DNA of 64,000 nucleotides from an uncultured Fidelibacterota bacterium (lineage in GTDB: Bacteria; Fidelibacterota; Marinisomatia; Marinisomatales; UBA1611): assembly GCA_913040915.1 (NCBI GenBank), contig CAJWHW010000008.1:1340-65339 (forward strand). The letters are read 5' to 3'. Under the pieces are notes generated by a model, which had not been told where the DNA came from, searched no databases, and saw only the letters and a program-made list of their open reading frames with translations. Positions 12,256 through 47,533 of the stretch are shown piece after piece (the stretch's first letter is position 1; every line of letters starts with the position of its first letter). A program made the position numbers and the translations under genes.

Positions 12256-12296
12256 ATTGTTGAACTAACTTATTTAAAATGAATTGTAAATAAAAA

Positions 12297-24358: not shown

Positions 24359-24429
24359 CAATTTTTATTATTATTAAAAGTAATTATTGAAATATATTTG
24401 GAATCAACTCAATTTACATTGTAAAATAT

Positions 24430-24443
24430 ACCGACCAGTCGGT
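24430..24443. promoter_or_regulatory. Probable TetR operator of the fad operon
   Basis: Inverted repeat ACCGAC-CA-GTCGGT just downstream of TAAAAT and 6 bp before the tetR ATG at 24450. Confidence 0.55.
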
Positions 24444-24449
24444 TTGTTA

Positions 24450-25043: not shown

Positions 25044-25053
25044 GAAAATAAAT

Positions 25054-26844: not shown

Positions 26845-26924
26845 GAAAAAATACAATGAAAATATTTCAACAACATAAATTAGCTTATCTATTGCACCGT
26901 AATAAACGGGCTTAAGGAGATATC

Positions 26925-28052
26925 ATGTCAAGATCAGTCATTATTGATGCAGTACGCTCACCTATTGGTGTGAAAAATGGAAATCTTGTTGGAATTCGCC
27001 CTGATGATCTTTCTGCCCAAGTTGTAAAAAGCCTTTTAGAGCGAATCAAATCTATTAAACCTGAATCTATCGAAGATCTAATCCTTGGTTGTGCTTTTCC
27101 CGAGGGTCCTCAAGGGATGCTTATGGCAAAAAGTGTGGCCATTCTTTCAGGTCTGCCTGAAACAGTTGGCGGTGCAGTGGTGAATCGGTTCTGTGGTTCA
27201 TCTATGGATGCTATTCATCAGCTTAGTGCAAGGATTGAGGCAGATGATATCCAGGCTGGTATAGCAGTAGGTGTAGAAGATATGTTTTCGATTCCAATGG
27301 GAGGTTTTAATCCTGATTTTCATCCAGAATTGGCAGAACAAGAATATTACATCGGCATGGGCGAAACTGCTGAAATATTAGCTGATGAAGGTAATATTAG
27401 CCGTGATGCCCAGGAAGAGTTTTCCATTAAATCCCATACAAAAGCGTTGGATGCTTGGGCAAACGGTAGATTCGATAATGAAGTTGTGTCGATTGATGTT
27501 TATGGTGAAGCCACTGTTGAAAAAGATGAAGGGCCAAGAGATCCAAATATGGAAAAAATTAAAAGTCTGAATCCTGTATTTTTAGAACATGGTACAATCA
27601 CACCTGCCACTTCAAGTCCAATTTCCATCGGCGCAGCTGCCATTTTAATTACAAGTGAAAAATTTGCTGAAGCGAATGGGCTGACTTTTCGTGCAACCGT
27701 AAAAAGTAGAGCTACTGTAGGTGTAGACTGGAAGAGAATGGGTATGGGGCCCATACCTGCAACAGAAAAAGCATTAAAGCATGCTGTCCTTTCATTAGAT
27801 GACATGGATGTTATTGAACTTAATGAAGCATTTGCAGCACAATCTCTTTATGTAATTCAGCAAGGCGGTTGGGATGCATCCAAAGTGAATTTGAATGGTG
27901 GTGCTATTGCCTTAGGGCACCCATTGGGCTGCTCCGGAGCGAGAATAATCACAACACTTATAAACGTAATGGAGCAGCAAAATGCTAAAACAGGATTGGC
28001 CACAATGTGTATTGGAACTGGTCAGGGCATAGCAACAATATTAGAACGATAG
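26925..28052 (+). CDS. fadA: Acetyl-CoA C-acyltransferase (thiolase)
   Basis: [38 protein letters not shown]; TAAGGAG ribosome-binding site. Confidence 0.95.
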
Positions 28053-28060
28053 GAATAGTC

Positions 28061-31878: not shown

Positions 31879-31882
31879 CGTA

Positions 31883-32440
31883 CTAAACTTCTATCACACC
31901 AATTACTTTTTTGTGTTTTATTTTACCAGATTTGAATAGTCTTGTTATCAAGATTTTCTGAATAATTATTTTTGATACTTCTACTTCTCTCTTCATTAAA
32001 ATTGTTTTTTTGATCCATTCTGTAAATTCTGTTTTCTCTTTATTATCTAATGTGGGGTATCTTACCTTTATAATGTATTTAGTATATTGATCTTCCCCAA
32101 TTATTGACTTTATCATTGTGTAATATTTTTTCTGTATACTGTTATAATTTTCTTCAGATTGCTTACTGAAATATGCTAGATCAATTGCTCGAGCAATTGC
32201 TATTTTTGAAAATGGGTAAGCCAATTCTTTTAGTTCAATAGAATCTTTTATACCATCCGTATAATAAAATAAATTATAATCTTTTAACGTATATTCTCCT
32301 TGATTAATGTCAATCCTAGAAAAGCCAGGCATTATAAATGATGGATAAGGCTCTCTGACAATTAACCCGTATGCTAGATGCAAAATCAAAAAAAAGGGAA
32401 ATAAATAAAATAATAAGATTATTGTTTTATTATTTTTCAT
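31883..32440 (-). CDS. Hypothetical membrane-anchored protein, partner of the HTTM gene
   Basis: One N-terminal TM followed by EPYPSFIMPGF; 4 bp from the HTTM gene. Confidence 0.65.
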   Translation of the reverse strand: MKNNKTIILLFYLFPFFLILHLAYGLIVREPYPSFIMPGFSRIDINQGEYTLKDYNLFYYTDGIKDSIELKELAYPFSKIAIARAIDLAYFSKQSEENYNSIQKKYYTMIKSIIGEDQYTKYIIKVRYPTLDNKEKTEFTEWIKKTILMKREVEVSKIIIQKILITRLFKSGKIKHKKVIGVIEV

Positions 32441-32604
32441 TTTAACTAATTGAAATTATTTAATCTCCATTTTATCCACCATTTGATAAATAATAATTGT
32501 ATTTTGTGTAATTCATATAAAAACTCTCATTTCTATAACATAAATAGATATAGAAAGAATTCTAATTATATGTAAAACCTGATCAAATTCTAATATTAAT
32601 GTAA

Positions 32605-33813
32605 TTAAAAATGATATTTCAAACCAATTTTAGTATGAGAAAAGTCTTCCATAGTCTGAAACTGAGTTTCTTCACCACCAATAATTTTTGAAAACGAAAA
32701 ATTTAATTGCCAATCATTTTTTGGAAAATAATCAGCAGAAAAGCCATATATAAGCTGAGTGTCTTTTAAATCCGTAAATAAATTTATCTTTAGATCAAGA
32801 GCATTATCCATGTGAGCTGATTGGGCCGCAAGTAATAATGCTAAATCTGTAAATGATGCAAAGGGTGTGCCCATTCCCGGTTTGAAATCAGGCTCTTTTT
32901 CAAGCATTGTTTTATCCCAATTTATTACACCATCCATGGATCCAATTACCTGAGCTGAGAGAATGATATCATTAGGTGTAGTATAGTCAATTTGTTCAGC
33001 ATATTGTATGTAAGATACATTATTAAAATATAAAGAGTCTATCTCAAAATCATTCTCTGTTGTAAAGAATCCAACCTCAAAACGGTTCGTCATATTACCA
33101 ATAAAAAAAACACCATCTAAACCAACAACATTAGTTTTTCTATAAGAAAATACTGGAACATTAACATCATGTCCTACATAATCAAAAGAACGATCTCTTC
33201 CTCTGAAAATTGAAAAACTAAAATCGCCAATATCATTTGTTGTCTGAATTCGAATACCAAATTCAGAAACAGTTTCCAATTCTATTAAAGGTGGATGACT
33301 AGCAGGAAGCTTAATTGGAAATGCCGTCTCATTAAATGGCATTCGGTTCGGTACGTGCTTTGGAATAAATACACCTTCAAATTGCCAATCATTCCAATAA
33401 TACTTGATTGATCCTGACACATTTCCAACCTTCCTTTCAGCACCGAGAAGAAACATATAATAATAATCATAAGGATTTAAATTATCTGTGGGATTGTTTC
33501 CATCTACTGTACCCCAAGCATGAATTTGCTTACCGAGTTTTAATTCTCCCCACTCAGGATACCACATAATATATATTTCCCTAAATTGAACGTCATTTTC
33601 ATTGTTGGACCATCGATACTCCAATGCTGAATTAGTTTGTATTTCAAAATCTCCCATAGAATACCCAATTTCTACTTCAATCAAACGAAATGGTAGTGAA
33701 ATCTCAGTCTGATCCGATAATCGATGCATATTTCCAGGCTTAAATGATCCGGTATAATTTAATTGCCCAAATAATATTGCTATTGGAAAAAGTGACCAAA
33801 ACAATTTTTGCAT
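32605..33813 (-). CDS. Outer-membrane beta-barrel protein (DUF1302-like), copy A
   Basis: Signal peptide, REIY, LGKQIHAWGTVDG, C-terminal GLKYHF. Follows the MMPL and LolA-like genes. Confidence 0.7.
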   Translation of the reverse strand: MQKLFWSLFPIAILFGQLNYTGSFKPGNMHRLSDQTEISLPFRLIEVEIGYSMGDFEIQTNSALEYRWSNNENDVQFREIYIMWYPEWGELKLGKQIHAWGTVDGNNPTDNLNPYDYYYMFLLGAERKVGNVSGSIKYYWNDWQFEGVFIPKHVPNRMPFNETAFPIKLPASHPPLIELETVSEFGIRIQTTNDIGDFSFSIFRGRDRSFDYVGHDVNVPVFSYRKTNVVGLDGVFFIGNMTNRFEVGFFTTENDFEIDSLYFNNVSYIQYAEQIDYTTPNDIILSAQVIGSMDGVINWDKTMLEKEPDFKPGMGTPFASFTDLALLLAAQSAHMDNALDLKINLFTDLKDTQLIYGFSADYFPKNDWQLNFSFSKIIGGEETQFQTMEDFSHTKIGLKYHF

Positions 33814-33817
33814 TCAG

Positions 33818-34579
33818 TCAGTCTCTCGGAGTACGCTTGAGATTTTTTTCTTGGAATAATTTTTTGTCAATACCGGAATCTACAAGAATATCTGAGAATG
33901 TAACTTCTGTAGAATGATTTTTTTGAATATCTTTCACAAACACTCTTTTAATTACATGGTATTCTTTAATACTCTGAAATGTATATTCTTTAACTTTTTT
34001 CAAGCGGCCACGCTTATCATATGCTTCTTCCTTCAAACCTATAAGCGCTGTTTTATCAATCCATGAAATATGTTTTGAATAAGAAGATTTTACTTTTTTG
34101 ATAGGAGTGATTTCTAAAACATAGCAATCTTTGCCAAGAAAAATTTCATCATCCAATCGCTTAAAATTATTTTCATCCAAATTCCGACTAGATAAATCTT
34201 CATAGCTTAAGTCTGAACCCATAAATGCATCCCCCTTTTTTTTGGATGATATTCGTCTTACTTTCTTAAAAGCAGGAAGCCACATTCTCATTTCATCATC
34301 TTTATCATCATGTTCAATTTTTAAGAATGCTACTCCCTTATCATCTTTCGGCTCCAAAAACCAGATTAATTGTTTTTTACTTCCATCAATTGATTTAGAC
34401 ACCATAGTGTTTGTTCTTGTTTTCCCTTTTGAATTAGTCAAAATCATTTTTGTTTTATTGGACATATCTTTTGGAGTTGGTCTATCATCGATCATCTTTG
34501 CAATCTCCAAACCGGATTGTCCAAGTAAATACCCAATGAGAACTGGCAGAGTGATAAACTTCTTCATTTTTTCCTCCAT
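33818..34579 (-). CDS. LolA-like outer membrane lipoprotein-sorting protein, copy A
   Basis: FLEPKDDKGVAFL, WLPAFKKVRRISS, FMGSDLSYEDL. The true start may be 34567. Confidence 0.85.
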   Translation of the reverse strand: MEEKMKKFITLPVLIGYLLGQSGLEIAKMIDDRPTPKDMSNKTKMILTNSKGKTRTNTMVSKSIDGSKKQLIWFLEPKDDKGVAFLKIEHDDKDDEMRMWLPAFKKVRRISSKKKGDAFMGSDLSYEDLSSRNLDENNFKRLDDEIFLGKDCYVLEITPIKKVKSSYSKHISWIDKTALIGLKEEAYDKRGRLKKVKEYTFQSIKEYHVIKRVFVKDIQKNHSTEVTFSDILVDSGIDKKLFQEKNLKRTPRD

Positions 34580-34599
34580 GAAATTATAGGTTTATTGTT

Positions 34600-35165
34600 T
34601 TATCAACGTATTGCTGCATATGCCCAGGTAAACCCAGCCCCAAATGCAGCCAAAATAAGATGGTCACCCTTTTTAATCAAACCATCTTCAAAAGCATCAC
34701 AAAGAGCAATTGGGATTGAAGCTGCAGTTGTATTACCGTATCTATGAATGTTATTGTATATTTTTTTTATCCATAGAAATATTCATCGACTTGGCTACTG
34801 ATTGTATAATTCGCAGATTCGCCTGATGTGGGATAATTAATCTAATATCATCGATAGATAAATCATTTTTATTCATAGCTTCATTAATCACTTCGGGAAA
34901 ACGGCACACAGCATTTTGAAATACTTTTTTCCCATTCATATATGGTTCATAGGCTTTGGAATTGTTCTTCATATTTTCCAAATTGATTTGATTTGCACCA
35001 GATGAGCCAGGTCCTTCCATCCAAAGATTTTTAATATTTGCACCATCACAGTGTAGATGAGTTGATAAAATTCCTTCATCATTATTAGTCGCCTGAATTA
35101 CTGCTGCACCGGCACCATCACCGAAAAGAACGGCAATATCCCGCCCTTCCGTAGATCCCTTTTAT
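34600..35165 (-). pseudogene. fabH: FabH (KAS III) remnant: N-terminal half missing, frameshifted
   Basis: Reads STEGRDIAVLFGDGAGA...YMNGKKVF...IIPHQANLRII, then after a +1 frameshift in the 8-nt A run (34761-34768) [17 protein letters not shown]...[10 protein letters not shown]. The catalytic-Cys half is absent. AGGAG is followed by ATA rather than ATG. Confidence 0.88.
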
Positions 35166-35182
35166 GGTACTCCTAATCATAT

Positions 35183-37498
35183 TTACATCTTCTTAATTAA
35201 TTTTTTCTTTAATAATTCTGCCAGGGCTGAAAGTACTGTTAATGTTCCAAGTGAAGTAGAGACCATGGCAAATACCATTAATCCACCAATATATTGGATA
35301 GGTATAAATACAGAAAATATTAATGCACCAAACCCCATATTTGAACACGCATCTAATATGATTGGATATCCGACATCATCAATCACTTCACGACTCAGTT
35401 GCTGGGGATTGATCTCCTTTGATAATCTACGAAATTGCGAAATATAATGAATTGCAAAATCAACACCCACACCAATAATAATGGATGACAAAATTGCAGT
35501 TATATGATTCAGCGCTACATCGAAATGTCCCATTAATCCAAAGTTCAGGATTACTGCAGATGATAGAGGAACCACAGCTAAGAAACCCCAAATGACCCGC
35601 TGAAAAAATATTGAAGCGATAACTCCAATAACAATTAATGAAAAAATGATGCTTAGAGCTGTTGATTTTATTATCATTATTACCATATCACGAATAACAA
35701 TAATCATTCCTGTTACAGTTAAAGTCATATCAGATGTCAAATTATTATCAATATATGTATTGATTTCATTAGCATACTGGAATATTTCATCAGTACTCAT
35801 TATTTTAGCCAATATGGTTAGTAATCCTGTTTCATAATTCATATCATCCACAATAGATGAATAATCATTTGAAAATCCTCTTATCAAGTTTTTTATTTTT
35901 GATGCTGAATCAGGAATCGTGTAATAGGTAAGTTTGTCATCCATAAATGTGCGATGCATTTGTTTAACTATATCGGCAAATGAATAACTTAAGGAGACTT
36001 TTTCTTCTTTTTCGAGAAAGGACTGAAGTCGATTCAAATCATTAAGTACTTGCGGATCTCGCATATCACCTTCTATTCTAACTCTTAGGTCTAACGTACC
36101 TGTCATTTCACGATCCATGAAATCCATACTGTCACGAATTTCCGTTCCAGGTTTAAAAAAATGGGCTATGTTTACATCAACGTATATTTTTTGAAATCCA
36201 AATAACCCAAACATCACTAAAATAATTCCAATTGAAAAAACATATTTTGGATGGGTTAATACCACTTTCCCTAAACGATCAATCAATTTTTCAAAAAAAC
36301 TTATTTTTTTAATTGCTTTTGATTCCATATCCCAATTCTTAATAGAAATAACCGCAGGAAGAAGTAAAGAACTGAGAAAACATGCCCATAGAATTCCTAC
36401 AGAAACAGTTATACCATATCCAATCAAAGGTTCCATTGGAGAAAAAATCATTGTCAAAAAAGCGACTACTGTGGTAATACTTGTTAAGAATATTGGCAGG
36501 AGTAAAGAATCCATGGTTGATACTAATGCTGTATTCAGATCACCTTTTAAACGCATTTCCTTGAAAAATTTTGAAATTACATGAACACCATCAGAGTTTG
36601 CTATTGTCAATAAGATAATTGGCATCGATGTATGCATCATTGTAAATAAAAATCGATCTGACTCAGTGAATTTGTATACCCAACCCATAAAACCTATCAT
36701 AGAGACCAATGATAATCCAATTACCATTAAAACCATTAGTAAACCAGGAATACTTCTTAGGTTTGATAATAGGATCATTACCATGATTAAAAGACCAATT
36801 TTTATCAGAGACTGAACATCTTTTCGAATTAATGAAGGTACTGTACCTGTAACATAGGCTGTGCCGCCATAATGGACCTCATAGCTCTCCAAAATCGTTC
36901 CTGTAGCCTTTACTAATTCATTCCGGAATTGATCTAGGCCTAAATCATCGTAGGGTTGTACCATGACAATGATGTAATCTTCATTCCGACTGATGAATTG
37001 CTTCTTCAAATTCGGATATTTATTTAAATAATCCCGAATGCCCATAATTTCAGTTTCTGCTAATTCACGATTAGGCTGTAAATCCTGTATGATTAACTCA
37101 CCTTCCTCATTGTCCATCCGCATCGAAGTTGAAATACAGGATACTTTTTCTACTACTGATAATGCTTCCAACTCTAAGACTAAATCCCAAAGTGTGCCTA
37201 AGGCATCTGGATGATATATTGAACGACCCTCATTCCCAAATGCTACAAAAATAACTTCTGTACTCCCAAACTCATCCTGTAAAGAATCCCAAGCCTGACG
37301 TGACTGAAGTTTTTTAGGAAGCATTTTCATCATATCATCATCTATAACTAAATATCTTATCCCCGAAGCCATAAAAAAAGTAGCCAGCAAAGATACAATA
37401 ATTGATCTGACAGGATAATGTATACTTTGGTAAATGATCCGTTGTCTTATGGGATGACTGGAATATTTATGAATCTTAGTGTTACTAGTTTTTTTCAA
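35183..37498 (-). CDS. MMPL/RND-superfamily transporter, copy A
   Basis: Two repeats of TM + periplasmic loop + 5 TM; IANSDGVH, LTSITT, GVGVDFAIHY. Confidence 0.9.
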   Translation of the reverse strand: MKKTSNTKIHKYSSHPIRQRIIYQSIHYPVRSIIVSLLATFFMASGIRYLVIDDDMMKMLPKKLQSRQAWDSLQDEFGSTEVIFVAFGNEGRSIYHPDALGTLWDLVLELEALSVVEKVSCISTSMRMDNEEGELIIQDLQPNRELAETEIMGIRDYLNKYPNLKKQFISRNEDYIIVMVQPYDDLGLDQFRNELVKATGTILESYEVHYGGTAYVTGTVPSLIRKDVQSLIKIGLLIMVMILLSNLRSIPGLLMVLMVIGLSLVSMIGFMGWVYKFTESDRFLFTMMHTSMPIILLTIANSDGVHVISKFFKEMRLKGDLNTALVSTMDSLLLPIFLTSITTVVAFLTMIFSPMEPLIGYGITVSVGILWACFLSSLLLPAVISIKNWDMESKAIKKISFFEKLIDRLGKVVLTHPKYVFSIGIILVMFGLFGFQKIYVDVNIAHFFKPGTEIRDSMDFMDREMTGTLDLRVRIEGDMRDPQVLNDLNRLQSFLEKEEKVSLSYSFADIVKQMHRTFMDDKLTYYTIPDSASKIKNLIRGFSNDYSSIVDDMNYETGLLTILAKIMSTDEIFQYANEINTYIDNNLTSDMTLTVTGMIIVIRDMVIMIIKSTALSIIFSLIVIGVIASIFFQRVIWGFLAVVPLSSAVILNFGLMGHFDVALNHITAILSSIIIGVGVDFAIHYISQFRRLSKEINPQQLSREVIDDVGYPIILDACSNMGFGALIFSVFIPIQYIGGLMVFAMVSTSLGTLTVLSALAELLKKKLIKKM

Positions 37499-37632
37499 TT
37501 TCTTTCACGCCATTATGGTTAATTGAACCTAAAATACCAACGCCAATAATACTACTAGGAGATTTTCTATTGTTTGAAAATGTTTTAATGAAAAAAAATT
37601 TTGACCAAGATTTGAATTAAAATAATGTATAA

Positions 37633-39093
37633 TTAATTAGTAGTAATAAACGAAAGGAGCATGATAGCATCATAAAATGTTACAGAACCATCTTCATTAA
37701 AATCTGCGGGAGGTGTCGGCTCATAGCCAACTCCAAAAGACATATCTATGATATAGATTAAATCAAATAAATCCAAATTTGAATCAAAATTAACATCGCC
37801 AAGTGTGAAATTTGGGAATCCAGCTTCTTCTAAATAATTCATGGGATATTTTTGAGCTCGTGCAATAAAAGTCTGATTATTGCCATAATCATAACTCCAA
37901 ACAACTTCATGAGAAGGTGTAACCTCGATCATAGTTGCATCATCACAATCGGTCAAAAGCGTATTACCGTTTGGCAAACGAAAAGCCCCTCCTTGCATTT
38001 GTGTGTGAAAGTCACCTATATGGGTCCAGATAGGTTCTTCAGGCCCAAATGGCTGATCCGGATCTATATGGTATATTCCGTTTTCAGTTAATGGCGGAAC
38101 TATTTCTAAAACAGCCGATATATTAATACCATGATTATTATTAAATAAAATTAAATTTCCTGCACCTGGTGATCCACTCGGTATCCAATTAATACCATGC
38201 TGTGCTGCTAACTGGTGGTCTGAATCATTTCCTCGACCATAGGTCTGCGGATTACCCCAGCGGTAAAGATAATCACCACCCATTCCCGAATTACCGCCTG
38301 AATGACTTGCTGCTTCTTCTGTGGTCGTACTATGATCTATAATATAAATTTCATCATGGTGCCTGGATGAAATTGCAATTTGATCTAATTCTTCATTATA
38401 AGCCAATGCATTATAATGTTTCCAATCGCCATTAGGGCCTCCAGGACCTTGATTAATACCTGCATTTCCAAAATTAATATCTTGCAACTCTGGGTGGTCT
38501 GAAATCACACCATAATTGGGTAATTCAGGGTCTACATCTTGGATTAAATGATCCCAAATATGCCATTCCCAGACAATATTGACTGAATCAGAGCCAACTG
38601 GCTCAACCTCTAAAATTGCTTCTGCCCACATTTCATTCAGGGAATTATCAATAGATTGTCTTCCAACTGCATAAGCTTCTGTCGCTGTTTTCCTTTCCCA
38701 AAGGATAACCAGAATATTTCCGTTTGGTAGAGGTTCTACATCATGGTGATGTTGATAGGTATTATTTGCAAACTCGTAGGACCATAATAATTCACCATCC
38801 CAATTGTAAATAGAGACGCCACCTCCTACTCCGCCAGCACCCATGGAAGGATTTTGGACACGATAAGGATAAATCAATGTGCTATCTTTTCTTAGATATG
38901 CCATACTTGCAGCACCACGGGGATGATCCCAAGAATTAATAACATTTAAATCATTGTCAATTAAAAAAGTAGTGAAACCACCTCCATTTGCACCCTGCGT
39001 TGGCGAAAACAGCGTCATACCTTCAAATGCCTGGCTATAAACTGAAGATAAAAGAATAATAATAAAAAAAATAATTGTCTTTTGTTTATTCAT
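37633..39093 (-). CDS. Aryl-sulfate sulfotransferase (ASST) family protein with C-terminal dockerin-like domain
   Basis: Signal peptide; QHHDVEPLPNGN, VWEWH, DWKHYNA, ISSRH, QH, RLPNGNTL. Tail has GDVNFDSNLDLFD...ADFNEDGSVTFYD (paired EF-hand-like repeats). Confidence 0.85.
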   Translation of the reverse strand: MNKQKTIIFFIIILLSSVYSQAFEGMTLFSPTQGANGGGFTTFLIDNDLNVINSWDHPRGAASMAYLRKDSTLIYPYRVQNPSMGAGGVGGGVSIYNWDGELLWSYEFANNTYQHHHDVEPLPNGNILVILWERKTATEAYAVGRQSIDNSLNEMWAEAILEVEPVGSDSVNIVWEWHIWDHLIQDVDPELPNYGVISDHPELQDINFGNAGINQGPGGPNGDWKHYNALAYNEELDQIAISSRHHDEIYIIDHSTTTEEAASHSGGNSGMGGDYLYRWGNPQTYGRGNDSDHQLAAQHGINWIPSGSPGAGNLILFNNNHGINISAVLEIVPPLTENGIYHIDPDQPFGPEEPIWTHIGDFHTQMQGGAFRLPNGNTLLTDCDDATMIEVTPSHEVVWSYDYGNNQTFIARAQKYPMNYLEEAGFPNFTLGDVNFDSNLDLFDLIYIIDMSFGVGYEPTPPADFNEDGSVTFYDAIMLLSFITTN

Positions 39094-39219
39094 ATTGATC
39101 CATTTTTAATAATTTTTGATGAATAATTTAACTCTTAGATTCCAGTAGGGTTAAAACGTTAAATATTCTTTATCAATAATGCCATAACCTATTTCTTATC
39201 TAAGAAAATTCTAATTCAT

Positions 39220-40302
39220 GTGATGTTAAAACGAATCATCAAAGTTTACTATATTATTGGTAAAACTTTTGGGGTATGGATTGCGCCTATTTTTACAGGT
39301 CTAATAATAATTATTTTACGGATAGTTGTGGGAATATCAAGATTTGTTGACCACTTACTATTCTCAGCAATTCGAAAATCAATAACGGCACCAATCATTA
39401 TTGTGGGTAACCCACGTTCTGGTACTACATTTCTTCATCGATTTTTGATTAAACAAGGATTTGGTGTAGGAAGTCAACTTTGGCAGATGGTTTATCCATC
39501 TATATTTCTCCAAAAGATTTTAAAACCCTTTTTGCCAATTATGGAATTTTTTAGTCCTGCCCGCCATCATTCTACTGAAGCTCATAAAACAAGTTTATCT
39601 TCAATAGAAACAGATGATGTATCTCTCTTTTTTAGGTATTTTGATGGATTTTTTCTATACGGATTTTTTTTAACATTTGATGAAGAAGATCTATTTAATT
39701 GGATAGATCCAAAAGTTCAAGATACTACAATACGTGACTTTGCATGGTTCGAAGCACTTTGGCAAAGAAGCCTGATTTCAAATAAAGGGAAAAGATATAT
39801 TGGTAAATTATTTAGTTTGAGTGGGAATCTCCCAAAATTCCAAAAGAGATTCCCTGATGCAAAAGTCATTTACATGGTGCGTGATCCTTTAAGTGTTATC
39901 CCATCCGGGCTTAGTCTTGTTACAGGCGTTTTAGATAAAAAATTTAACTTTTGGTCCTTAGACCCAGAAATCAAAGTCCGATTTATTCAAAGATTATATA
40001 AAGCCCTAGTTGAATTATTAAATCGATTTCATGAAGATTGGATAGAGAATAAGATAGATAAGGAAAAAGTGCTGATCGTTCGTTTTGATAACATGATGTC
40101 CAATTTTGAATCTGTTATGGATGATATTATTTCATTTACAAATCAAGAAATAACGGATCTACTTTTAGAAAAAATTAAAACAACATCAGAAAGCCAGCGC
40201 GCATACAAAAGTAGGCACAAATATGATTTGCAAAAATTCGGACTAAGTGAAGATCAGATTAAAAAAGATTGCATACATATCTATGAAACATTCTTATCCT
40301 AA
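39220..40302 (+). CDS. PAPS-dependent sulfotransferase (Sulfotransfer_3-like)
   Basis: 5'-PSB loop IIVGNPRSGTTFLH, 3'-PB motif FPDAKVIYMVRDP...S, C-terminal HKYDLQKFGL; hydrophobic N-terminal segment. Confidence 0.88.
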   Translation: MMLKRIIKVYYIIGKTFGVWIAPIFTGLIIIILRIVVGISRFVDHLLFSAIRKSITAPIIIVGNPRSGTTFLHRFLIKQGFGVGSQLWQMVYPSIFLQKILKPFLPIMEFFSPARHHSTEAHKTSLSSIETDDVSLFFRYFDGFFLYGFFLTFDEEDLFNWIDPKVQDTTIRDFAWFEALWQRSLISNKGKRYIGKLFSLSGNLPKFQKRFPDAKVIYMVRDPLSVIPSGLSLVTGVLDKKFNFWSLDPEIKVRFIQRLYKALVELLNRFHEDWIENKIDKEKVLIVRFDNMMSNFESVMDDIISFTNQEITDLLLEKIKTTSESQRAYKSRHKYDLQKFGLSEDQIKKDCIHIYETFLS

Positions 40303-40305
40303 TTT

Positions 40306-40911
40306 ATGATTAAATATTTTTTCCAATTTATTTTAATTCACTATTCAATTCTCGCCTTGGATTTGCGAAAAATAGAATCCTTTACTAATTGGAAAAATCT
40401 ACAAAAGGGCACAATCACTGTTGATTGGTGTAACTATGAAGGGTATCCAGTCAGCCGAGCGGAAACCATACTGAATCATCCAATGGCTATGGTTGCAAAA
40501 GCCGTTGAGGATGTTGACCAATATCCGAAAATTTTCAATCGTGTTACAAAAACAAACCGCTTGGGAAAAGACGTAGTTCAAATTGTATTGGATATGCCAT
40601 TTCCCTTCGATGGACGAGATTACATCGTAAATTACAAAATTAAAAATTCTGCAAATGAGTATACTTTAGTGTTTTCAGCTATTGAACATCCCTTGGGGAA
40701 ATTGGAACCCAATCATGTAAGGCTTCCAAATGCCGCAGGTATCTGGATATTAAAAAAATTGAATGAAAACCAAACTAAAATAATCTATGGTTGGAATGGA
40801 GAGCTATTAGGGAATTTTCCTGATTTTGGACTCACTAAGGCATGGGTGATGCAGGGAACTGAAGTCTTAAATTGGCTGGATGAGGCCCTGAATAAAAGGA
40901 AAAATTCATGA
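40306..40911 (+). CDS. START/SRPBCC lipid-binding domain protein with signal peptide
   Basis: LDMPFPFDGRDYI and HVR...GIWIL pattern typical of START domains; N-terminal MIKYFFQFILIHYSILA. Confidence 0.7.
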   Translation: MIKYFFQFILIHYSILALDLRKIESFTNWKNLQKGTITVDWCNYEGYPVSRAETILNHPMAMVAKAVEDVDQYPKIFNRVTKTNRLGKDVVQIVLDMPFPFDGRDYIVNYKIKNSANEYTLVFSAIEHPLGKLEPNHVRLPNAAGIWILKKLNENQTKIIYGWNGELLGNFPDFGLTKAWVMQGTEVLNWLDEALNKRKNS

Positions 40912-42335
40912 AAAATTTTATTCTTCTGTCCTCAATTTCAATATTGTTTTCAGATGAGCTAACATTTCAATTCAATGGATTCGTGGATTTTGCAAATATA
41001 TCTCGTTTATCTGATAATTCACTAATTGATATACCTTACAGAATAGGCTCATTGAATTTTTCACAACATTCCAATAATATTTCATTAAATGGAAACTTCT
41101 CATTAGAATATCAAATTCGGAGTGACACCTATTTTTTAGAATCAAAGGATCCTCAGGATTTTAGATGGGACATGCGGGAATTATATGGTACAATCTCCAG
41201 TGACCAGTTTGAATTTAGATTTGGAAAACAAATCCACTCCTGGGGAAGTGTTGATGTGAATAGTCCAGTAGATAATGCCAGCGCATTTGATTATTATTAT
41301 ATCTTCTTCCTTGGGCAGGAAAGGAAAATGGCTACTTTTTCTACTATTATCGATTATTATATCGGCAATTTAAAAATGAATATTGTTTTTTCCCCAATAC
41401 ATACTACAAATCGTATTCCGCTTGGTGATGATGAATTTCCAATCACCTTACCAATTTATCCTAAAGAAAGCCAAATATTACCGATTTCAAAACTCCCATT
41501 GGAGAGTGGGTTTCATGGGACATATTCATTTGGGTTAGGTGATATTTCTGCATCTTACTTTTCAGGTTATGATCGAGTGTTTAATTTTACAGGTGTTAAT
41601 GTTTATAGTAATAATAGCCAAACTATTTTTTCACCTCCTGATTTAGTATTTGGATATAGAAAAACAAATGTTTTCGGTTTTGGATTCACTTTTTTGAATC
41701 CAAGTTTTATCCTAAGAGTAGACACTGGTCATTTCAAAACTAAAGATTTAAATGATATAATTGAACGTCCCTACTCTAACTCAGCCTTAGCAACTATTTA
41801 TGATACTTTAGTTTTTAGTTATCCACTTAAAGAGAGAGCAAGCTATAGACAATCTACCATCCAAATTGAAACTGAACTTCCATTCAAGATTAATTTTATC
41901 GGTCAAATATTCATCCATGAAAAATCATCCTTCTCATCAGATACTCTGCCAGATGTGGAAATTGATATCCCAGGATTTGAATATGATCCGGAAACTATGA
42001 CACCTGAAAATTTTTTTACACCGGGTATGGGAGTCCCATTAGCTATTTTGACTGAAAAAGCAGCAATTTTTGTTATTTATAGAACATTATTTGATGAACA
42101 ATTGAAACTATCTATGACATCCATGCTTGATTTAAAAGAATATCAAGGAGTTTCAGGAATTCCCGGGAATTTGACCGAATACAAGTTGGAATATAATATT
42201 ACGCAAGATCTACTTGGCCTTTTAGGTGTTACAAAAGTTCAGGGATCAGATGACCATCCCGAAGGTGAAGAATACCAATTCAATTCGATGGAAGATTTTT
42301 CTCATTTAAGATTTGAATTAAAATATTATTTCTAA
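40908..42335 (+). CDS. Outer-membrane beta-barrel protein, copy B (paralog of 32605-33813)
   Basis: Shares RLSD, GKQIH.WG.VD, DYYY.F.LG.ERK, PGMG.P and MEDFSH....LKY.F with copy A. Confidence 0.72.
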   Translation: MKNFILLSSISILFSDELTFQFNGFVDFANISRLSDNSLIDIPYRIGSLNFSQHSNNISLNGNFSLEYQIRSDTYFLESKDPQDFRWDMRELYGTISSDQFEFRFGKQIHSWGSVDVNSPVDNASAFDYYYIFFLGQERKMATFSTIIDYYIGNLKMNIVFSPIHTTNRIPLGDDEFPITLPIYPKESQILPISKLPLESGFHGTYSFGLGDISASYFSGYDRVFNFTGVNVYSNNSQTIFSPPDLVFGYRKTNVFGFGFTFLNPSFILRVDTGHFKTKDLNDIIERPYSNSALATIYDTLVFSYPLKERASYRQSTIQIETELPFKINFIGQIFIHEKSSFSSDTLPDVEIDIPGFEYDPETMTPENFFTPGMGVPLAILTEKAAIFVIYRTLFDEQLKLSMTSMLDLKEYQGVSGIPGNLTEYKLEYNITQDLLGLLGVTKVQGSDDHPEGEEYQFNSMEDFSHLRFELKYYF

Positions 42336-42347
42336 AAAGAAAATTTA

Positions 42348-43313
42348 TTGAAAATAAAAATTACAGGGGTAGGGCTCTATCTCCCTCCAAAAATAGAAAC
42401 TGCAGCAGATATTTCGGAGAAAATTGGAAAATCTGTTGATTGGATCATTGAAAAAACTGGAGTGATTGAGCGACGGGTATCCGAAATAGATGTTGACCAA
42501 ATGGGAGCATTAGCCGCAAAGAATGCTTTAGGAAAGGGCGGAAAACCCGACTTAATCATAAATGCTTCCGGTGTACCAAAACAAACCATACCTGATACAG
42601 CTGCATTCTACCAAAAAGAACTTGGTTATAAAGGAATTCCATCTTTCAGTATTCATTGTACCTGCCTATCTTTTATTACAGCCTTACACACAGCAGCTTC
42701 ACTGATACATTCCCGTTCCTATAAACGTATACTAATTATTTCTTCAGACCGTGGAACGATAGGAAGAAATTTTAACGAACCGGAAAGTGCATCGCTTTTA
42801 GGTGATGGGGCTGCTGCCGTAGTAGTGGAACGAACGTTAAAAGATGAAACCGGTAAACTCATTTACTTTGATATGAAAACCTTTCCTAAATATGCTAATC
42901 TAACTGAGGTTCGAGGGGGAGGTACAAATAAGCATCCACAGGACCCAGAAACAACACTAGCAGACAATTTGTTTACCATGAATGGACCTGCAGTATATAA
43001 AATCGCCAGAAAAGAAGTATATCGAATGATGCTAAAAACAATGAAAGAAACAGAGTTAAAAAGAGAAAATGTGGATTGGATAATTCCACATCAAGCTTCC
43101 GGCAAGGCAGTAGATGCCTATATTTTAGCAGGTGGATTTTCCGAACAAAAGGTGGTAAATATAATTACAAAATTTGGAAATTGCGTAGCTGCTTCTGTAC
43201 CTATGGCTTTTGCAACTGCGGTAGAAGATGGACGTATAAAACGTGGTGATCTTATATTGTTTATTGGAACAGGTGCTGGTTTGAGTGTAGCGTGTGCTTT
43301 AATACGATATTAA
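42348..43313 (+). CDS. Ketoacyl synthase III-like condensing enzyme (FabH-like, PHQAS type)
   Basis: Intact Cys-His-Asn triad: CTCLSF, IIPHQAS, FGNCVAASVP; also LLGDGAAA and GTGAG. TTG start. Confidence 0.9.
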   Translation: MKIKITGVGLYLPPKIETAADISEKIGKSVDWIIEKTGVIERRVSEIDVDQMGALAAKNALGKGGKPDLIINASGVPKQTIPDTAAFYQKELGYKGIPSFSIHCTCLSFITALHTAASLIHSRSYKRILIISSDRGTIGRNFNEPESASLLGDGAAAVVVERTLKDETGKLIYFDMKTFPKYANLTEVRGGGTNKHPQDPETTLADNLFTMNGPAVYKIARKEVYRMMLKTMKETELKRENVDWIIPHQASGKAVDAYILAGGFSEQKVVNIITKFGNCVAASVPMAFATAVEDGRIKRGDLILFIGTGAGLSVACALIRY

Positions 43314-44378
43314 TTACTTTACCAGAATTAATTTTTTGATCTCCATATCAATCCCATCATTAATCTTTAAAAAATATAAGCCAGATGAATATTCAGATCC
43401 ATCCCAGTGGATTTGATACTTGCCAGTTTTATATATTCTATTTTTTGAAATAACATCTACTTCATTTCCCAGCAAATCAAATATGCTGATAAATAATCTC
43501 CGATCATATGGAATAAACAGATCAAGTATTACCTTATGATTAAATGGATTTGGATAAGGCTGCGAAAGTTTATACTGATAAGGCAAGCCATTTTTAATTA
43601 GTGAAACATTTTCACACTCTTGTGGTGTATAAACAGGAAATGAATAATAAAATTGATCCAGACTCAATTCAAAATGTTCACTTTCCACTATACAGGAATC
43701 TATATTCTCACACAGTATATTTCCCCCAATGGCAAAAAAAGGATAACCACCATTGTCATTATTGTCCCAATCCAAATTCATATCACAAAAACAGTTTGGT
43801 AGTGATTCAAGATTATTATTAAATAACCAGAGATAGATTAGGTTATTCAAGTTGCAAATCGATTCTGGTAAACTCCCTATTTTATTATATCCCAGATCTA
43901 GAAAATATAAACCATCTAAATTCCCAAGACTGTCAGGTAGATTTTCTAAAATATTATTATTCATATGAAAAGATTGTAGACCAATCATATCAGAAAAAGT
44001 TTCAGGCAATGTTGAAATTCTATTCCATTCAAGATAAAGAGAAGCAAGACTTGTCCAATTCCCAATATTTTCAGGCAAAACAAAAATTGTATCATTAACA
44101 CCTGAACTGTTTCCATAATTTCCAGCAACTAAAAATCTAAGTCGACCATTAAACCAAGTCTGAGTCCCTAATGCTAATGGAGAATCATACTCTAGGTTAT
44201 TTTTTATGATAATAGAATCCAGTACTTCAACATCTGAATCATAAAAGCATGTATCACCAGCAAGGATTGTTACGTTCAAAGGTAAATTGGGATAATAAGT
44301 ATAAGCACTGTCACATTGTCCAGTTAAACTTTGAGTAACGAAGGATATTATAAATGAAATGGTGATCTTTTTAATCAT
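43314..44378 (-). CDS. Leucine-rich-repeat secreted protein with C-terminal sorting (T9SS-A/FlgD-like) domain
   Basis: LRRs LYLEWNRISTLPE, FHMNNNILENLPD, LDLGYNKIGSLPE, LWLFNNNLESLP; tail PYPNPFN...SSGLYFL...KKLILVK. Confidence 0.85.
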   Translation of the reverse strand: MIKKITISFIISFVTQSLTGQCDSAYTYYPNLPLNVTILAGDTCFYDSDVEVLDSIIIKNNLEYDSPLALGTQTWFNGRLRFLVAGNYGNSSGVNDTIFVLPENIGNWTSLASLYLEWNRISTLPETFSDMIGLQSFHMNNNILENLPDSLGNLDGLYFLDLGYNKIGSLPESICNLNNLIYLWLFNNNLESLPNCFCDMNLDWDNNDNGGYPFFAIGGNILCENIDSCIVESEHFELSLDQFYYSFPVYTPQECENVSLIKNGLPYQYKLSQPYPNPFNHKVILDLFIPYDRRLFISIFDLLGNEVDVISKNRIYKTGKYQIHWDGSEYSSGLYFLKINDGIDMEIKKLILVK

Positions 44379-46471
44379 TTTATTAGAATGACTTTACGTG
44401 TTTGCGACTGATTTCCACATGTTAAATGAATGAAGTATATACCAGAAGGTTGATTTACAGCATTCCATGTATATGAGTAATGGTTTGATGATAGATTATC
44501 ATTCAATATTGATTTGATAACCTGTCCTGATATGTTAAATACTTCCAGTGAATTTCTTTGTTGAGGTTCTAAAATATCAAATTGAATTGTTGTTACTGGA
44601 TTGAAAGGGTTTGGAAAAGGTTCATATAATTGGAATACTGCAGTTATCGTTCCACCTTCATTTCCTAATAAATTCGAGTGTCCTTCAATTTGAATTAGCT
44701 TTTGATTCTCAGGATGATGAATAGGTGTAATAATAAGTTCAATATTATTTATATCATCTGATTCCGGAATCTCTCCTGTAAATGAAAGTGTCTGGGTTGC
44801 ATCTGGTGAAAGTGTAATTATCTCTTCTGATGATTCAAACCAACCTGCTTGATCAGTAAAAGTATATTGATATTCAACCTCATATGGTCCTTCATTTATT
44901 AACTCAAAAGTTATTAAAGACGATCCCGGGTTTAAATAAACACCCGACTGTCCATTAAAATCTGTCAAGTCACTAACTATAACGCTAAAGGCAGCAGGAA
45001 ATATTCCCGGAATACGATGGGCTCGGTAAACCGCACCATTAGGAAGACTTAAATTATAATTTGCTTCCCAAACTATTTGCCCATTAGTATTAACCTCAAG
45101 GCTTCGCCCACCACCTCCTATGGTAGTAACCAATACATTTCCATTTTGAAGTTTTTGGGCATTCCCGGAAGCAAAACCAAATAGATCATTTGGCAAGTCA
45201 TAAGTCCAAACCAATTCTGCATTATTTGCATTTACTGAAATTTCAATCGCCCTGGACTGAGGATCATTAGTATTTCTGAAAATTTCAGATAGATTTCCAT
45301 TGTCAAAGGTAAGAAGATTACCATTATCTAAAATTTGTACACTATGTTGGAAACTAAACCCTATATCTGTTCCAAGAGTTACATCCCCGGAAGGCATATC
45401 ATGTCCCAAATTCCAAATGATGTTACCAGAAGGATAATCAATTTTTGTGATCCGGGATAAATGACGCGTAGATATGTAAATTGCATTTTCAGATTCTTCA
45501 AATATTACCGCATTTACATGTGTCCAGTCATAATGCAAATCAACATAAGCTTGATTCCAGGTGCCTCCATATTGATCAAAATCGATCATATTAAAATGAT
45601 CGAACACATTCCATTCCCACACTACATCACCAGTCTCAGCATCCCATTCAACTAGTTTATCACCGATCCATGGAAATTCGATTGTTACACCATCAGCTTG
45701 AAAACCAAGCCCTTGGAATAAATAAGTCCAGTCTCCTATTGGTATATAGCCAAGTGAACTCGTTTCAATAATTCCAAGATAATTTCCATTAGGTAATTGA
45801 ATTAAATCATGGTGCAAGAATTCATTATTGGGTTCCTCCCAAATAGTTTCACCTAGAAATGTGAATTCCTTGCCGGGTAAATTATTCTCTGTTCCAGAAG
45901 CCAAAGAGCAGCCAAATACATCACCACTTTCACTCGTACTGTAATAAACTAAATTCTCAGCTCCCGAATTCCATATCTCTTTCCCTGTCTTATCTACTGC
46001 AGCTGAAAAATAATTAAAGAAGGCTCCAAAAACAGTGATTCCATCCTGAATTAGGTTTTCATTGATAATAGTAGTGGTAGTCTCAGAAATAGGTGACCCT
46101 GTAGAAAAATTATATGCTGGACTCCAATCTCCTGTCATATTTGACACATTAAGCGGACGGATGCGCCAGTGATAGGTTTTATCCCATTCCAAATCATTCT
46201 TTTCAATATAGATTAAAGAATAATCAATAACCTGCACTACTATACTTGAAAAACTGGGATTTTCTGAAACTTGTAACTCATACCCTATTGCTTCCGGAAT
46301 TTGTTTCCATTCAAATATCACATGGAGATGGTTTAATTCTGAATTGTTTTCTGGAAGAATCAATCCTGCAAATAAATACTGAACCCAAAAAATTATTAAC
46401 CTAAGATAGTTTTTATAAAATTTCAAAATTATTAATATAAAGATGTAATGAATTAAAAATAAATTAATCAA
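44375..46471 (-). CDS. Aryl-sulfate sulfotransferase (ASST) family protein with N-terminal Fn3-like and C-terminal sorting domains
   Basis: LHHDLIQLPNGN, VWEWN, DWTHVNAV, ISTRH, FSFQH, FDNG, YRA. N-terminus YELQVS...YHWRIR; tail PFPNPFNP...PSGIYF. The true start may be the TTG near 46426. Confidence 0.85.
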   Translation of the reverse strand: MINLFLIHYIFILIILKFYKNYLRLIIFWVQYLFAGLILPENNSELNHLHVIFEWKQIPEAIGYELQVSENPSFSSIVVQVIDYSLIYIEKNDLEWDKTYHWRIRPLNVSNMTGDWSPAYNFSTGSPISETTTTIINENLIQDGITVFGAFFNYFSAAVDKTGKEIWNSGAENLVYYSTSESGDVFGCSLASGTENNLPGKEFTFLGETIWEEPNNEFLHHDLIQLPNGNYLGIIETSSLGYIPIGDWTYLFQGLGFQADGVTIEFPWIGDKLVEWDAETGDVVWEWNVFDHFNMIDFDQYGGTWNQAYVDLHYDWTHVNAVIFEESENAIYISTRHLSRITKIDYPSGNIIWNLGHDMPSGDVTLGTDIGFSFQHSVQILDNGNLLTFDNGNLSEIFRNTNDPQSRAIEISVNANNAELVWTYDLPNDLFGFASGNAQKLQNGNVLVTTIGGGGRSLEVNTNGQIVWEANYNLSLPNGAVYRAHRIPGIFPAAFSVIVSDLTDFNGQSGVYLNPGSSLITFELINEGPYEVEYQYTFTDQAGWFESSEEIITLSPDATQTLSFTGEIPESDDINNIELIITPIHHPENQKLIQIEGHSNLLGNEGGTITAVFQLYEPFPNPFNPVTTIQFDILEPQQRNSLEVFNISGQVIKSILNDNLSSNHYSYTWNAVNQPSGIYFIHLTCGNQSQTRKVILIK

Positions 46472-47238
46472 ATTTTTATTAAGAAAGATTCTGAGAAAAT
46501 CTCATCTCTAAGGCCAATGTCTGGCTTGAAAGATTGAATCACCATGATAGTTTTATTCCCATTTTGATTCGTCATTATCATCCTAAATGGTGTTATAAAA
46601 TTATTTTCTTCAACAAATTTGTCAAGGATTAGAGTTTTTTCCTTATTGGATTCACTAGAATAAAACTCAATCTTAATTATTTGCCATTTTTTTGTGCTTA
46701 CCCATAGTTTCCTCGCAAAATAAGAACTTGCTTTTTTCGGCCAAGCCATTATTACTTTACATTGACTACCTTGAAAATGTTCTGTACCTAGAAGGGACAA
46801 ACTATCAAGACCTAATTTTCGACTTTCAAGATCTTCATAAATAAAATCAGTACCCATGAAAGATTTTGTTTTTTCTTTAGCTTTAACTCGCTTTGCAGTT
46901 TTTAATTTTGGTAAGAAAAACCATTGATCAGTTTTCCCATTACTATATACCCAACTCAACAGGCCCGTATCCTTAATTTTTAGTGGTTTATGGAACCGAA
47001 CTAAGGATTTAGACTGAAATTTCCCTGATGAATAATTTTTATTGAAACGAGTGAATTCCCTAACCTTGATTTTTTCCTTTCCATGTTTTATTCGAACAAT
47101 CTCAAGTTTAATCTCTGTTATTGATGAATTTGGTTTAGGTGCATCATATACCATTTTCATAATTTCCTCAGCGGTGTATTCTTGAGCAAAGACTTGAATG
47201 CCAAGCATAGAAAAAAACATAAAATTAATTTTCATCAT
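46468..47238 (-). CDS. LolA-like outer membrane lipoprotein-sorting protein, copy B
   Basis: Signal peptide; QWFFLPKLKTAKRV and FMGTDFIYEDLESR, matching copy A. Confidence 0.85.
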   Translation of the reverse strand: MMKINFMFFSMLGIQVFAQEYTAEEIMKMVYDAPKPNSSITEIKLEIVRIKHGKEKIKVREFTRFNKNYSSGKFQSKSLVRFHKPLKIKDTGLLSWVYSNGKTDQWFFLPKLKTAKRVKAKEKTKSFMGTDFIYEDLESRKLGLDSLSLLGTEHFQGSQCKVIMAWPKKASSYFARKLWVSTKKWQIIKIEFYSSESNKEKTLILDKFVEENNFITPFRMIMTNQNGNKTIMVIQSFKPDIGLRDEIFSESFLIKI

Positions 47239-47533
47239 TATGTCTTATAAAAAGTAGTGATATAGGAGTGAATAATATTGCTAATATAGAACAAATTAAA
47301 TAATCCTTCTGATATCTTAGTTCAAAATAACCTGCGACTTGAAGACAAATAAAAACATATCCAATAAAAATAATATCAAAATAATGATTTAAAAGATATG
47401 TAAAAATTTCTCCAGTTGTCCAATTCTTAAATGTATCGATAGTTTCAGCCGAGCCTAGTCCGTAAATAATTAAGAGGCAACTAATAAGCAAAAGCATGCC
47501 ACTAAGCATCTTATCTTGTTTTACAGTCTTCAT
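47225..47533 (-). CDS. Small membrane protein (about 3 TM)
   Basis: Three hydrophobic segments; overlaps both neighbours in an operon-like way. Confidence 0.6.
   Translation of the reverse strand: MKTVKQDKMLSGMLLLISCLLIIYGLGSAETIDTFKNWTTGEIFTYLLNHYFDIIFIGYVFICLQVAGYFELRYQKDYLICSILAILFTPISLLFIRHNDEN

Follow-up and report, generated by a model that had tools for sequence, protein, structure and literature searches.

A cluster of genes was analyzed in a stretch of 64,000 nucleotides of contig CAJWHW010000008.1, from an uncultured Fidelibacterota bacterium; the whole stretch is referred to as the window. The cluster encodes a sulfotransferase (ST) of the type dependent on 3'-phosphoadenosine 5'-phosphosulfate (PAPS), two exported proteins of the arylsulfate sulfotransferase (ASST) family, a condensing enzyme and the parts of a putative transport route. 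The metagenome-assembled genome (MAG) that contains it consists of 1,864,068 bases in 71 contigs, with a completeness of 85.28% and a GC content of about 34%. Genes were identified by calling open reading frames (ORFs) and by scanning the window proteins with Pfam and NCBIfam profiles. On this basis, the cluster spans about 32605-49836 and is organized in three operons, whose elements are listed in Table 1. Operon A, on the reverse strand, contains in order ASST1, the resistance-nodulation-division (RND) transporter RND_A, a FabH remnant, the LolA-like carrier LolA_A and a 402-aa barrel. Operon C, on the forward strand, contains ST, a 201-aa START-fold protein, a 475-aa barrel and the condensing enzyme, a 3-ketoacyl-ACP synthase III (KAS III). 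Operon B, again on the reverse strand, contains RND_B, a 102-aa membrane protein, LolA_B, ASST2 and a leucine-rich repeat (LRR) protein.

An initial annotation of the same DNA had described a condensing enzyme, a PAPS-type ST and ASSTs clustered at 37633-46471, with lipid transporters at their flanks. All three functional classes were found at those coordinates, and RND pumps and LolA-like proteins do lie on both sides of them; the genes are real, but the functional unit is larger than the proposed interval.

Table 1. Features of the cluster, in order of position within the window. Profile scores are in bits. T9SS, type IX secretion system; AF2 pLDDT, confidence of the AlphaFold2 model.
Feature	Position	Strand	Description	Profile matches
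402-aa barrel	32605-33813	-	Outer-membrane beta-barrel, DUF1302-like; last gene of operon A	
LolA_A	33818-34579	-	LolA-like/DUF1329-like periplasmic carrier (module A)	PF17131 182.7; PF07044 43.6 (cut-off 23.1)
KAS3b remnant	34580-35182	-	Pseudogene remnant of a second canonical FabH; C-terminal ~200 residues, in two frames	
RND_A	35183-37498	-	HAE3/MMPL-type RND inner-membrane transporter (module A)	PF03176 83; TIGR00921 184.5
ASST1	37633-39093	-	ASST-family beta-propeller, predicted exported, 486 aa; first gene of operon A	PF05935 67.7
Palindrome	39127-39163	.	Operator-like 35-bp palindrome, TTAAC-N25-GTTAA, in the ASST1/ST divergent promoter region	
ST	39220-40302	+	PAPS-type sulfotransferase, 360 aa; first gene of operon C	PF13469 74.3; PF00685 39.6
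START	40306-40911	+	START-fold lipid-binding protein, 201 aa; signal-peptide-like N-terminus; AF2 pLDDT 88.7	No Pfam match
475-aa barrel	40908-42335	+	Outer-membrane beta-barrel, DUF1302-like; AF2 pLDDT 79.9	
KAS III	42348-43313	+	Condensing enzyme, 321 aa	PF08541 94.5; PF08545 60.8
LRR	43314-44378	-	LRR protein with T9SS sorting tail; always adjoins ASST2	LRR families; PF18962 42.1
ASST2	44375-46471	-	ASST-family propeller, predicted T9SS-exported, 698 aa	PF05935 101.2; PF14269 84.3; PF18962 43.3
LolA_B	46468-47238	-	LolA-like carrier (module B)	PF17131 160.4
Small membrane protein	47225-47533	-	Hydrophobic, 102 aa; always accompanies module B	
RND_B	47530-49836	-	HAE3/MMPL-type RND transporter (module B)	PF03176 154.1; TIGR00921 275.6

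Enzymes and transport proteins of the cluster

The ST protein carries the motifs GNPRSGTT (residues 63-70) and RDP (residues 221-223) which, together with S229, are invariant in 25 orthologues, aligned with a mean column identity of 74%. We take GNPRSGTT and RDP...S to be the loops binding the 5'-phosphosulfate and the 3'-phosphate of PAPS, respectively. An N-terminal hydrophobic segment, with Ser/Ala-Pro in its middle, is also conserved; by analogy it is read as a putative monotopic anchor, with which the enzyme would stay cytoplasmic. The nearest solved structures, matched weakly (E 0.03-0.09), are the mycobacterial Stf-type proteins 2zq5 and 2z6v, and a look-up in a protein-cluster atlas assigned ST to generic sulfotransferase clusters only.

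Both ASST proteins exceed the Pfam cut-offs (24.2 bits for PF05935 and 27 for PF14269), with 67.7 and 33.5 bits for ASST1, and 101.2 and 84.3 bits for ASST2. Their active sites were evaluated by using an alignment of 32 sequences, 15 of the ASST1 type, 16 of the ASST2 type and a third paralogue. The ASST1 and ASST2 groups share just 19-25% identity, and four active-site columns, corresponding to H117, H226, R244 and H299 in ASST1 and to H221, H318, R336 and H376 in ASST2, are invariant in all 32 sequences. The three His and the Arg are thus retained throughout, while the initial annotation had named the loss of catalytic His residues as an observation that would speak against it. It had also called for an alignment with E. 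coli AssT: by using HMMER, H226 and R244 of ASST1 could be matched to His356 and Arg374, whereas H299 falls, within a weak alignment, one column off position 436, the QH dipeptide being common to both proteins. For ASST2, H318, R336 and H376 align with H, R and H of 9kf6, its best match among solved structures in PDB (9kf6/9kf4, E 1.7e-18). According to the corresponding report, 9kf6/9kf4 belongs to clade 14 of the ASSTs, comes from Streptomyces and acts on liponucleosides of the caprazamycin type (10.64898/2026.10.08.757629). Judging from their sequences, both ASSTs look catalytically active.

A genome-wide abundance of ASST paralogues, also foreseen as an objection, was not observed, as only three ASST genes are present in the genome, two of them in the cluster. 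The third is located on contig C6 (L048:5123-11402; related loci are numbered L, genomes G and contigs C); it encodes a 699-aa protein, 38% identical to ASST2 and with a weak T9SS tail, and comes after genes for a TonB-dependent receptor and a 360-aa protein, with no ST nearby.

As first proposed, both cluster ASSTs look exported: their N-termini, like those of their orthologues, resemble signal peptides, and ASST2 ends with a T9SS C-terminal domain. Searched against the genome, the region of this tail gave more than 40 further T9SS-tail hits, and a PorV-like gene is also present, with a score of 131.6 bits, below the cut-off of 250. ASST1 ends with a dockerin-like module (PF00404, E 1.1e-4), whose 22.7 bits are just under the cut-off of 22.9. 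Dockerin matches were found in nine ORFs of the genome, and cohesin-like matches in large ORFs (1170 and 1095 aa) on contigs C15 (37735-39819) and C10 (16637-17113). The sequence matches suggest a cohesin-dockerin surface assembly, which could tether ASST1.

The best solved matches of KAS III are CorB (205.7 bits) and MxnB (198.6 bits), the stand-alone, alpha-pyrone-forming ketosynthases of corallopyronin and myxopyronin (PDB 4yuc, 4v2p), compared with 153.6 bits for the best true FabH. The Cys-His-Asn triad that it shares with them (C106/H248/N278) is invariant in all 14 orthologues. KAS III is just 25% identical to the housekeeping FabH encoded on contig C9, and all NCBIfam FabH-type models score it below their cut-offs. 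The pseudogene remnant in operon A, called KAS3b, belongs to a different kind. It has lost the N-terminal region that would include the catalytic Cys, and ORF 34751-35020 matches the FabH C-terminal domain; full-length copies are found between RND_A and LolA_A in L013, L017 and L047. The KAS3b of L017 shows the opposite ranking, with 295 bits to E. coli FabH versus 122 to CorB/MxnB, and thus provides an internal control for the affinity of KAS III to CorB/MxnB. Dialkylresorcinol synthesis of the DarB/StlD type was considered for KAS III and dropped, as the scores (34.6 bits with NF005293, 21.7 with resorcinol_DarB) are far from the cut-offs of 450 and 550.

The transport side turned out to be fuller than originally claimed, with a START-fold protein, two barrels, LolA/DUF1329-like proteins and HAE3-type RND pumps. 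The barrels are paralogues, 31% identical over the full length of the 402-aa protein, and align as one family, in which six of 35 members match the Pfam family DUF1302 (PF06980; best E 6.2e-6); the two window proteins have no Pfam match. Top Foldseek matches of the 475-aa barrel model are AlgE, Occ channels and porins, with TM scores of about 0.5, and AlgE and Occ are also reported as fold neighbours of DUF1302 (PMC13499233). The model of the START-fold protein has START domains as its top matches, with TM scores of 0.70-0.78. Orthologues of LolA_A share a signal-peptide-like N-terminus. Both RND pumps score above the cut-off of the MMPL Pfam family and below that of TIGR00921 (HAE3, 351.9 bits). 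A second copy of module B was observed on contig C55 (L049, 3291 bases), which encodes an RND pump 70% identical to RND_B, the 102-aa-type membrane protein and the beginning of a protein resembling LolA_B; this copy may represent either a true paralogue or a strain variant binned with the MAG.

Conservation and divergent promoter of the cluster

Related loci were collected by using ST as an anchor, from relatives and from a phylum-wide sample. After four duplicates were dropped, 43 non-redundant loci were retained, from several families of Marinimicrobia (SAR406). START is found in 41 of them, ASST1 in 40, the barrel in 39, ASST2 and LRR in 37 each, RND_A in 26, KAS III in 23 and a PAPS synthase in two. 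The small membrane protein is located between RND_B and LolA_B in 12 loci. The six-gene core, formed by ST, ASST1, START, barrel, LRR and ASST2, is complete in 35 loci, and ASST1 adjoins ST in 40; the three exceptions (L016, L044, L062) stop at a contig edge. Gene order is shuffled among loci, the gene set being retained: in L014, L018-L023, L025 and L046, for example, the ASST2-LRR pair is located between START and barrel. Chance co-location of the cluster genes was discarded as an explanation, since the same set recurs through several rearrangements. Families that are more distant but belong to the same class (L051-L055, L059 and L060) also retain the core, together with KAS III, but RND and LolA genes are frequently missing from the surrounding 10 kb.

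The conserved link between ST and ASST, whose lack the initial annotation would have counted against itself, is supported by co-occurrence as well as by adjacency. Orthologues of ST and ASST1 are both present in 22 of 41 relatives and both absent from 17; one of the remaining two has a partial ASST1 only, and the other only a 28%-identical ST paralogue. The ST paralogues of G035 and G022:C1 (28-29% identity) were not accepted as orthologues, no cluster being found around either. Within the phylum, ST orthologues were identified in 55 of 301 sampled genomes, and public genome and metagenome data, with Tara Oceans among the sources, contain 1759 ST homologues, at least 120 of which are at least 68% identical.

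The PAPS synthase of L026 is a 557-aa protein combining PUA_2, ATP-sulfurylase and APS kinase (adenosine 5'-phosphosulfate kinase) domains, encoded on the reverse strand at L026:16697-18370, between ASST2 and LolA_B. The second one is located beside ASST2 in L059, a locus of a different family from L026.

Some variation in gene content was also recorded. ASST1 occurs in tandem copies in some relatives (three in L024:3799-9247, three in L051 and two in L028:776-3783), and further ASST1-type paralogues are located elsewhere in several genomes. In clusters lacking KAS III, the slot between barrel and LRR holds other secreted proteins (L038:8576-13820, L037:13453-14679, L045:13117-16601 and L040:7868-8998). 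Those with a T9SS tail include an 856-aa multicopper oxidase (L038), a protein of the beta-lactamase family (L045) and three unnamed proteins, while two beta-helix/NosD-like proteins (L037, L038) gave no T9SS tail match. The inserted proteins hint at an extracellular phenol or ester chemistry.

ASST1 and ST are transcribed divergently from a 126-bp region, which contains a palindrome found only once in the window. Of 26 intergenic regions between ASST1 and ST, 18 contain the same TTAAC-N25-GTTAA pattern, which has 9 sites in 425,642 bases elsewhere in these loci. In 13 non-redundant loci of relatives, the same genus included (L031:7722-8330), ASST1 and RND_A are separated by a TetR gene (203-207 aa), and the palindrome is the likely operator of this regulator. 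The corresponding slot of the window is a 134-bp gap (37499-37632), and no orthologue of the cluster TetR was found anywhere in the MAG; in this genome the cluster may be unregulated. Two TetR genes of the window (15336-15932 and 24387-25043) were examined and rejected as orthologues, their 27-28% identity being restricted to the DNA-binding part. Scans of region 32000-50500 gave numbers of sigma-70 promoters (105 versus 95.7) and terminators (9 versus 8.7) not above those expected from shuffled sequences.

Likeness to known systems

In the two-step sulfation of caprazamycin in Streptomyces, as related in two papers that cite Tang et al. 2013 for it, Cpz6 is a type III polyketide synthase (PKS), Cpz8 a PAPS-dependent sulfotransferase and Cpz4 an ASST (PMC4257720, PMC4924298). 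Both systems bring together genes for a condensing enzyme, a PAPS-type ST and an ASST. The best solved relative of ASST2 is the caprazamycin-type ASST 9kf6, and those of KAS III are reported to fuse two chains into a 4-hydroxy-alpha-pyrone, the chemical class of the Cpz6 products (PMC5506619, PMC5724707). The parallel with Cpz6, drawn from the start, thus holds for the affinity to pyrone-forming enzymes and fails for the enzyme family, as a KAS III of the FabH superfamily, optional in the cluster, replaces the type III PKS. Other differences are that both ASSTs are predicted to be exported, that genes for trans-envelope lipid transport are included, that no antibiotic pathway is present, and that the host is an uncultured marine Gram-negative bacterium.

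The second likeness is with a proteobacterial module defined by cofitness and composed of a DUF1302 barrel, a LolA-like DUF1329 protein, a beta-propeller and a COG1033 RND transporter (bioRxiv 10.1101/072470, 10.1101/2020.07.04.188060, PMC13499233). The transport side of the cluster matches this four-part module, which occurs twice in the window. The cluster and the proteobacterial module both combine a LolA/LolB-like protein, a propeller, a HAE3-type RND pump and an outer-membrane barrel whose fold neighbours are AlgE/Occ-like, near fatty-acid catabolic genes. In contrast with the proteobacterial module, an ASST whose active site is intact serves as the propeller, and not a BNR/Ycf48-like protein; the match of the barrel family to DUF1302 is weak; genes for ST, START, KAS III and LRR are added; and one of the propellers is probably secreted by T9SS. 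A beta-oxidation operon, encoding TetR, acyl-CoA dehydrogenase, thiolase and FadB on the forward strand (24387-30406), abuts the cluster, a location that echoes that of DUF1302/DUF1329 near fatty-acid catabolic genes in Pseudomonas putida; FadB adjoins the cluster in 11 of the 43 related loci.

Among less complete likenesses, CorB and MxnB receive their beta-keto chains, bound to carrier proteins, from adjacent PKS modules; no carrier protein or PKS module is found near KAS III, and the Pro266 of CorB is replaced by Ala. E. coli AssT-type enzymes (PDB 3elq, 4p04) belong to the same Pfam family as the cluster ASSTs, are exported and have the catalytic His and Arg in common with them; ASST1 is very distant from them (E 0.04-0.05), and the T9SS or dockerin-like tails and the genomic context are different. 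From these comparisons, the cluster joins in one locus two known kinds of system, the Cpz relay and the DUF1302/DUF1329/propeller/RND module.

A possible sulfate relay and its alternatives

The cluster is interpreted, tentatively, as a lineage-specific cell-envelope sulfation system working as a sulfate relay, which we rank ahead of its alternatives and regard as a plausible though by no means secure reading. ST, a membrane-associated enzyme of clear family and presumed chemistry, would use cytoplasmic PAPS to sulfate a small amphiphilic carrier with an enolic or phenolic hydroxyl. Where KAS III is present, the carrier would probably be an alkyl-hydroxypyrone-like product of this CorB/MxnB-like enzyme. 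The parts of a route for such a cargo are encoded in the cluster: HAE3 RND pumps may extract the sulfated carrier, LolA/DUF1329-like and START-fold proteins may ferry it across the periplasm, and DUF1302-like barrels may pass it through the outer membrane. The two exported ASSTs, ASST1 with its dockerin tag and ASST2 displayed by T9SS beside the LRR protein, would accept the sulfate on their conserved catalytic His and hand it to presumed acceptors outside the cytoplasm, where PAPS is unavailable. Operons A and C would be expressed from the divergent, palindrome-bearing promoter region, the palindrome being probably bound by TetR in relatives.

In a more specific form of the proposal, put forward with somewhat greater reserve, the inner membrane would be the place where a lipid-like enol or aryl sulfate, charged from PAPS, is formed; the compound would then be exported by a route of the DUF1302/DUF1329/RND type and spent by periplasmic and surface ASSTs on sulfating molecules beyond the cytoplasm. 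That the product of ST is the ASST donor is purely conjectural. The initial annotation had suggested a Cpz-like relay with an exported sulfated lipid as donor. The ST-ASST linkage, the active sites and the Cpz4-type affinity agree with this suggestion, as do the CorB/MxnB-like affinity of KAS III, the PAPS synthase found in or beside the cluster in two loci, the operator-like site common to ASST1 and ST and the fuller export route, whereas KAS III proved optional and the genes for PAPS supply were not found in the MAG.

A number of observations weigh against the relay. APS kinase, ATP sulfurylase and CysD were not found in this 85.28% complete MAG, and just 8 of 24 genomes of the family were found to contain APS kinase, among them genome G001, of the same genus; its genes often lie on short contigs or at contig ends. 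As about four further Sulfotransfer_3 genes are present in the MAG itself, incompleteness is the likelier reason for the missing genes. The ST domain is only presumed to face the cytoplasm. One source annotates an ST homologue as a Stf3-type lipid (menaquinone) sulfotransferase, and such a name would imply an alkyl sulfate product, a poor donor for ASSTs; together with the weak matches to 2zq5 and 2z6v, it favours lipid alcohols over phenols as substrates.

Other points on the same side concern the carrier and the counts. KAS III has H248-Q249-A250 where CorB has HQP, so that the equivalent of Pro266 is absent, a residue tied by the authors of the CorB study to non-decarboxylative chemistry (PMC5506619). 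No acyl carrier protein (ACP) or PKS domain was detected among the cluster ORFs by the Pfam and NCBIfam scans. KAS III is present in 22 of the 35 complete clusters and absent from 13, and in five genomes with clusters lacking it no orthologue was found anywhere, but only FabH paralogues of at most 31% identity. KAS III is an accessory member of the cluster, closest in sequence to the pyrone-forming CorB and MxnB, and its product is therefore not a universal carrier. Up to 9 of the 35 complete clusters have no RND and LolA genes in the surrounding 10 kb, and some of these clusters are cut by contig ends. Finally, as the loci were anchored on ST and the relatives are not independent of each other, the counts overstate the independent support.

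Several of these points would be accommodated by an outer-membrane sulfolipid pathway, in which the product of ST is an end product, transported by the RND, LolA-like, START and barrel proteins, and the ASSTs act separately, either on other, probably environmental, phenolic substrates or in tailoring surface molecules with unrelated donors. Mycobacterial sulfolipid systems include Stf sulfotransferases and MmpL transporters, and the pairing of a Sulfotransfer_3-type ST with MMPL/HAE-type RND lipid exporters is reminiscent of them, although the envelope architecture is different and the similarity of ST is weak (E 0.03). Those systems are not known to include ASSTs. The Stf-type nearest structures of ST and the Stf3-type name of its homologue fit this explanation, as do the HAE3/MMPL pumps, the START fold and the barrels, all compatible with lipid export, the dispensability of KAS III in 13 of 35 clusters, and the third ASST, which is located beside a TonB-dependent receptor and away from any ST. 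It does not account for the retention of two ASSTs alongside ST in 35 complete clusters despite repeated rearrangement, for the divergent promoter common to ASST1 and ST, with its conserved operator-like site, or for the joint gain and loss of these two genes. On balance, a sulfolipid pathway of this kind appears rather unlikely.

The transport proteins may also work inwards, in the uptake and processing of exogenous hydrophobic or sulfated aromatic compounds, with surface ASSTs stripping or shifting the sulfate and the products feeding beta-oxidation. Such a function would agree with the shared four-part architecture (the DUF1329 match of LolA_A, DUF1302-like barrels, COG1033/HAE3-type RND and propeller), with the FadB gene adjacent in 11 loci and the TetR-acyl-CoA dehydrogenase-thiolase-FadB operon of the window, and with the T9SS-tailed multicopper oxidase and esterase-family genes inserted in some loci lacking KAS III. 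The Pseudomonas module is reported to have a phenotype on Tween 20 and butyl stearate and to be located near fatty-acid catabolic genes; the same sources leave the direction of transport unsettled even for the proteobacterial module. An uptake system would leave without a function a PAPS-type ST whose cofactor motifs are invariant, as well as a PAPS synthase within the cluster and a biosynthetic KAS III, and is judged distinctly improbable.

A purely structural role of the ASST-like propellers, in which they would replace the BNR/Ycf48-like propeller of the transport modules and transfer no sulfate, is very improbable. The propeller of operon A does occupy the position that a propeller has in the four-gene module of Proteobacteria, but the three His and the Arg of the active site never vary among the 32 sequences, for an identity of 19-25% between groups, and ASST2 is predicted to be exported by T9SS, away from the periplasmic machinery.

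If the sulfate relay is true, it would provide the first physiological donor for exported ASSTs, and the first biochemical role for the widespread barrel/LolA-like/propeller/RND modules. Two recent papers describe almost all ASSTs as having unidentified natural donors and acceptors. The only case known to have been worked out is that of an intracellular antibiotic pathway. Our literature search found no paper linking Marinimicrobia/SAR406, or T9SS, with ASSTs. In an abundant uncultured phylum of the ocean, the cluster links exported ASSTs with a PAPS-type ST, with an enzyme that may make the carrier and with all the parts of a putative export route. It offers a short list of assayable proteins, by which two questions become testable: the route of extracytoplasmic sulfation and the cargo of DUF1302/DUF1329/propeller/RND modules.

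A few other features of the window were recorded. Between FadB and the cluster, region 30436-32440 contains two genes on the reverse strand, one for a 480-aa protein whose C-terminal domain is a DCC1-like thiol-disulfide oxidoreductase and the other for a protein of 185 aa. Neither of them gave a match when queried against the related loci, and the pair therefore looks like a local insertion. Two tandem glyceraldehyde-3-phosphate dehydrogenase genes are located at 60897-62914, and two tandem DUF454 genes at 11848-12683, all on the reverse strand.

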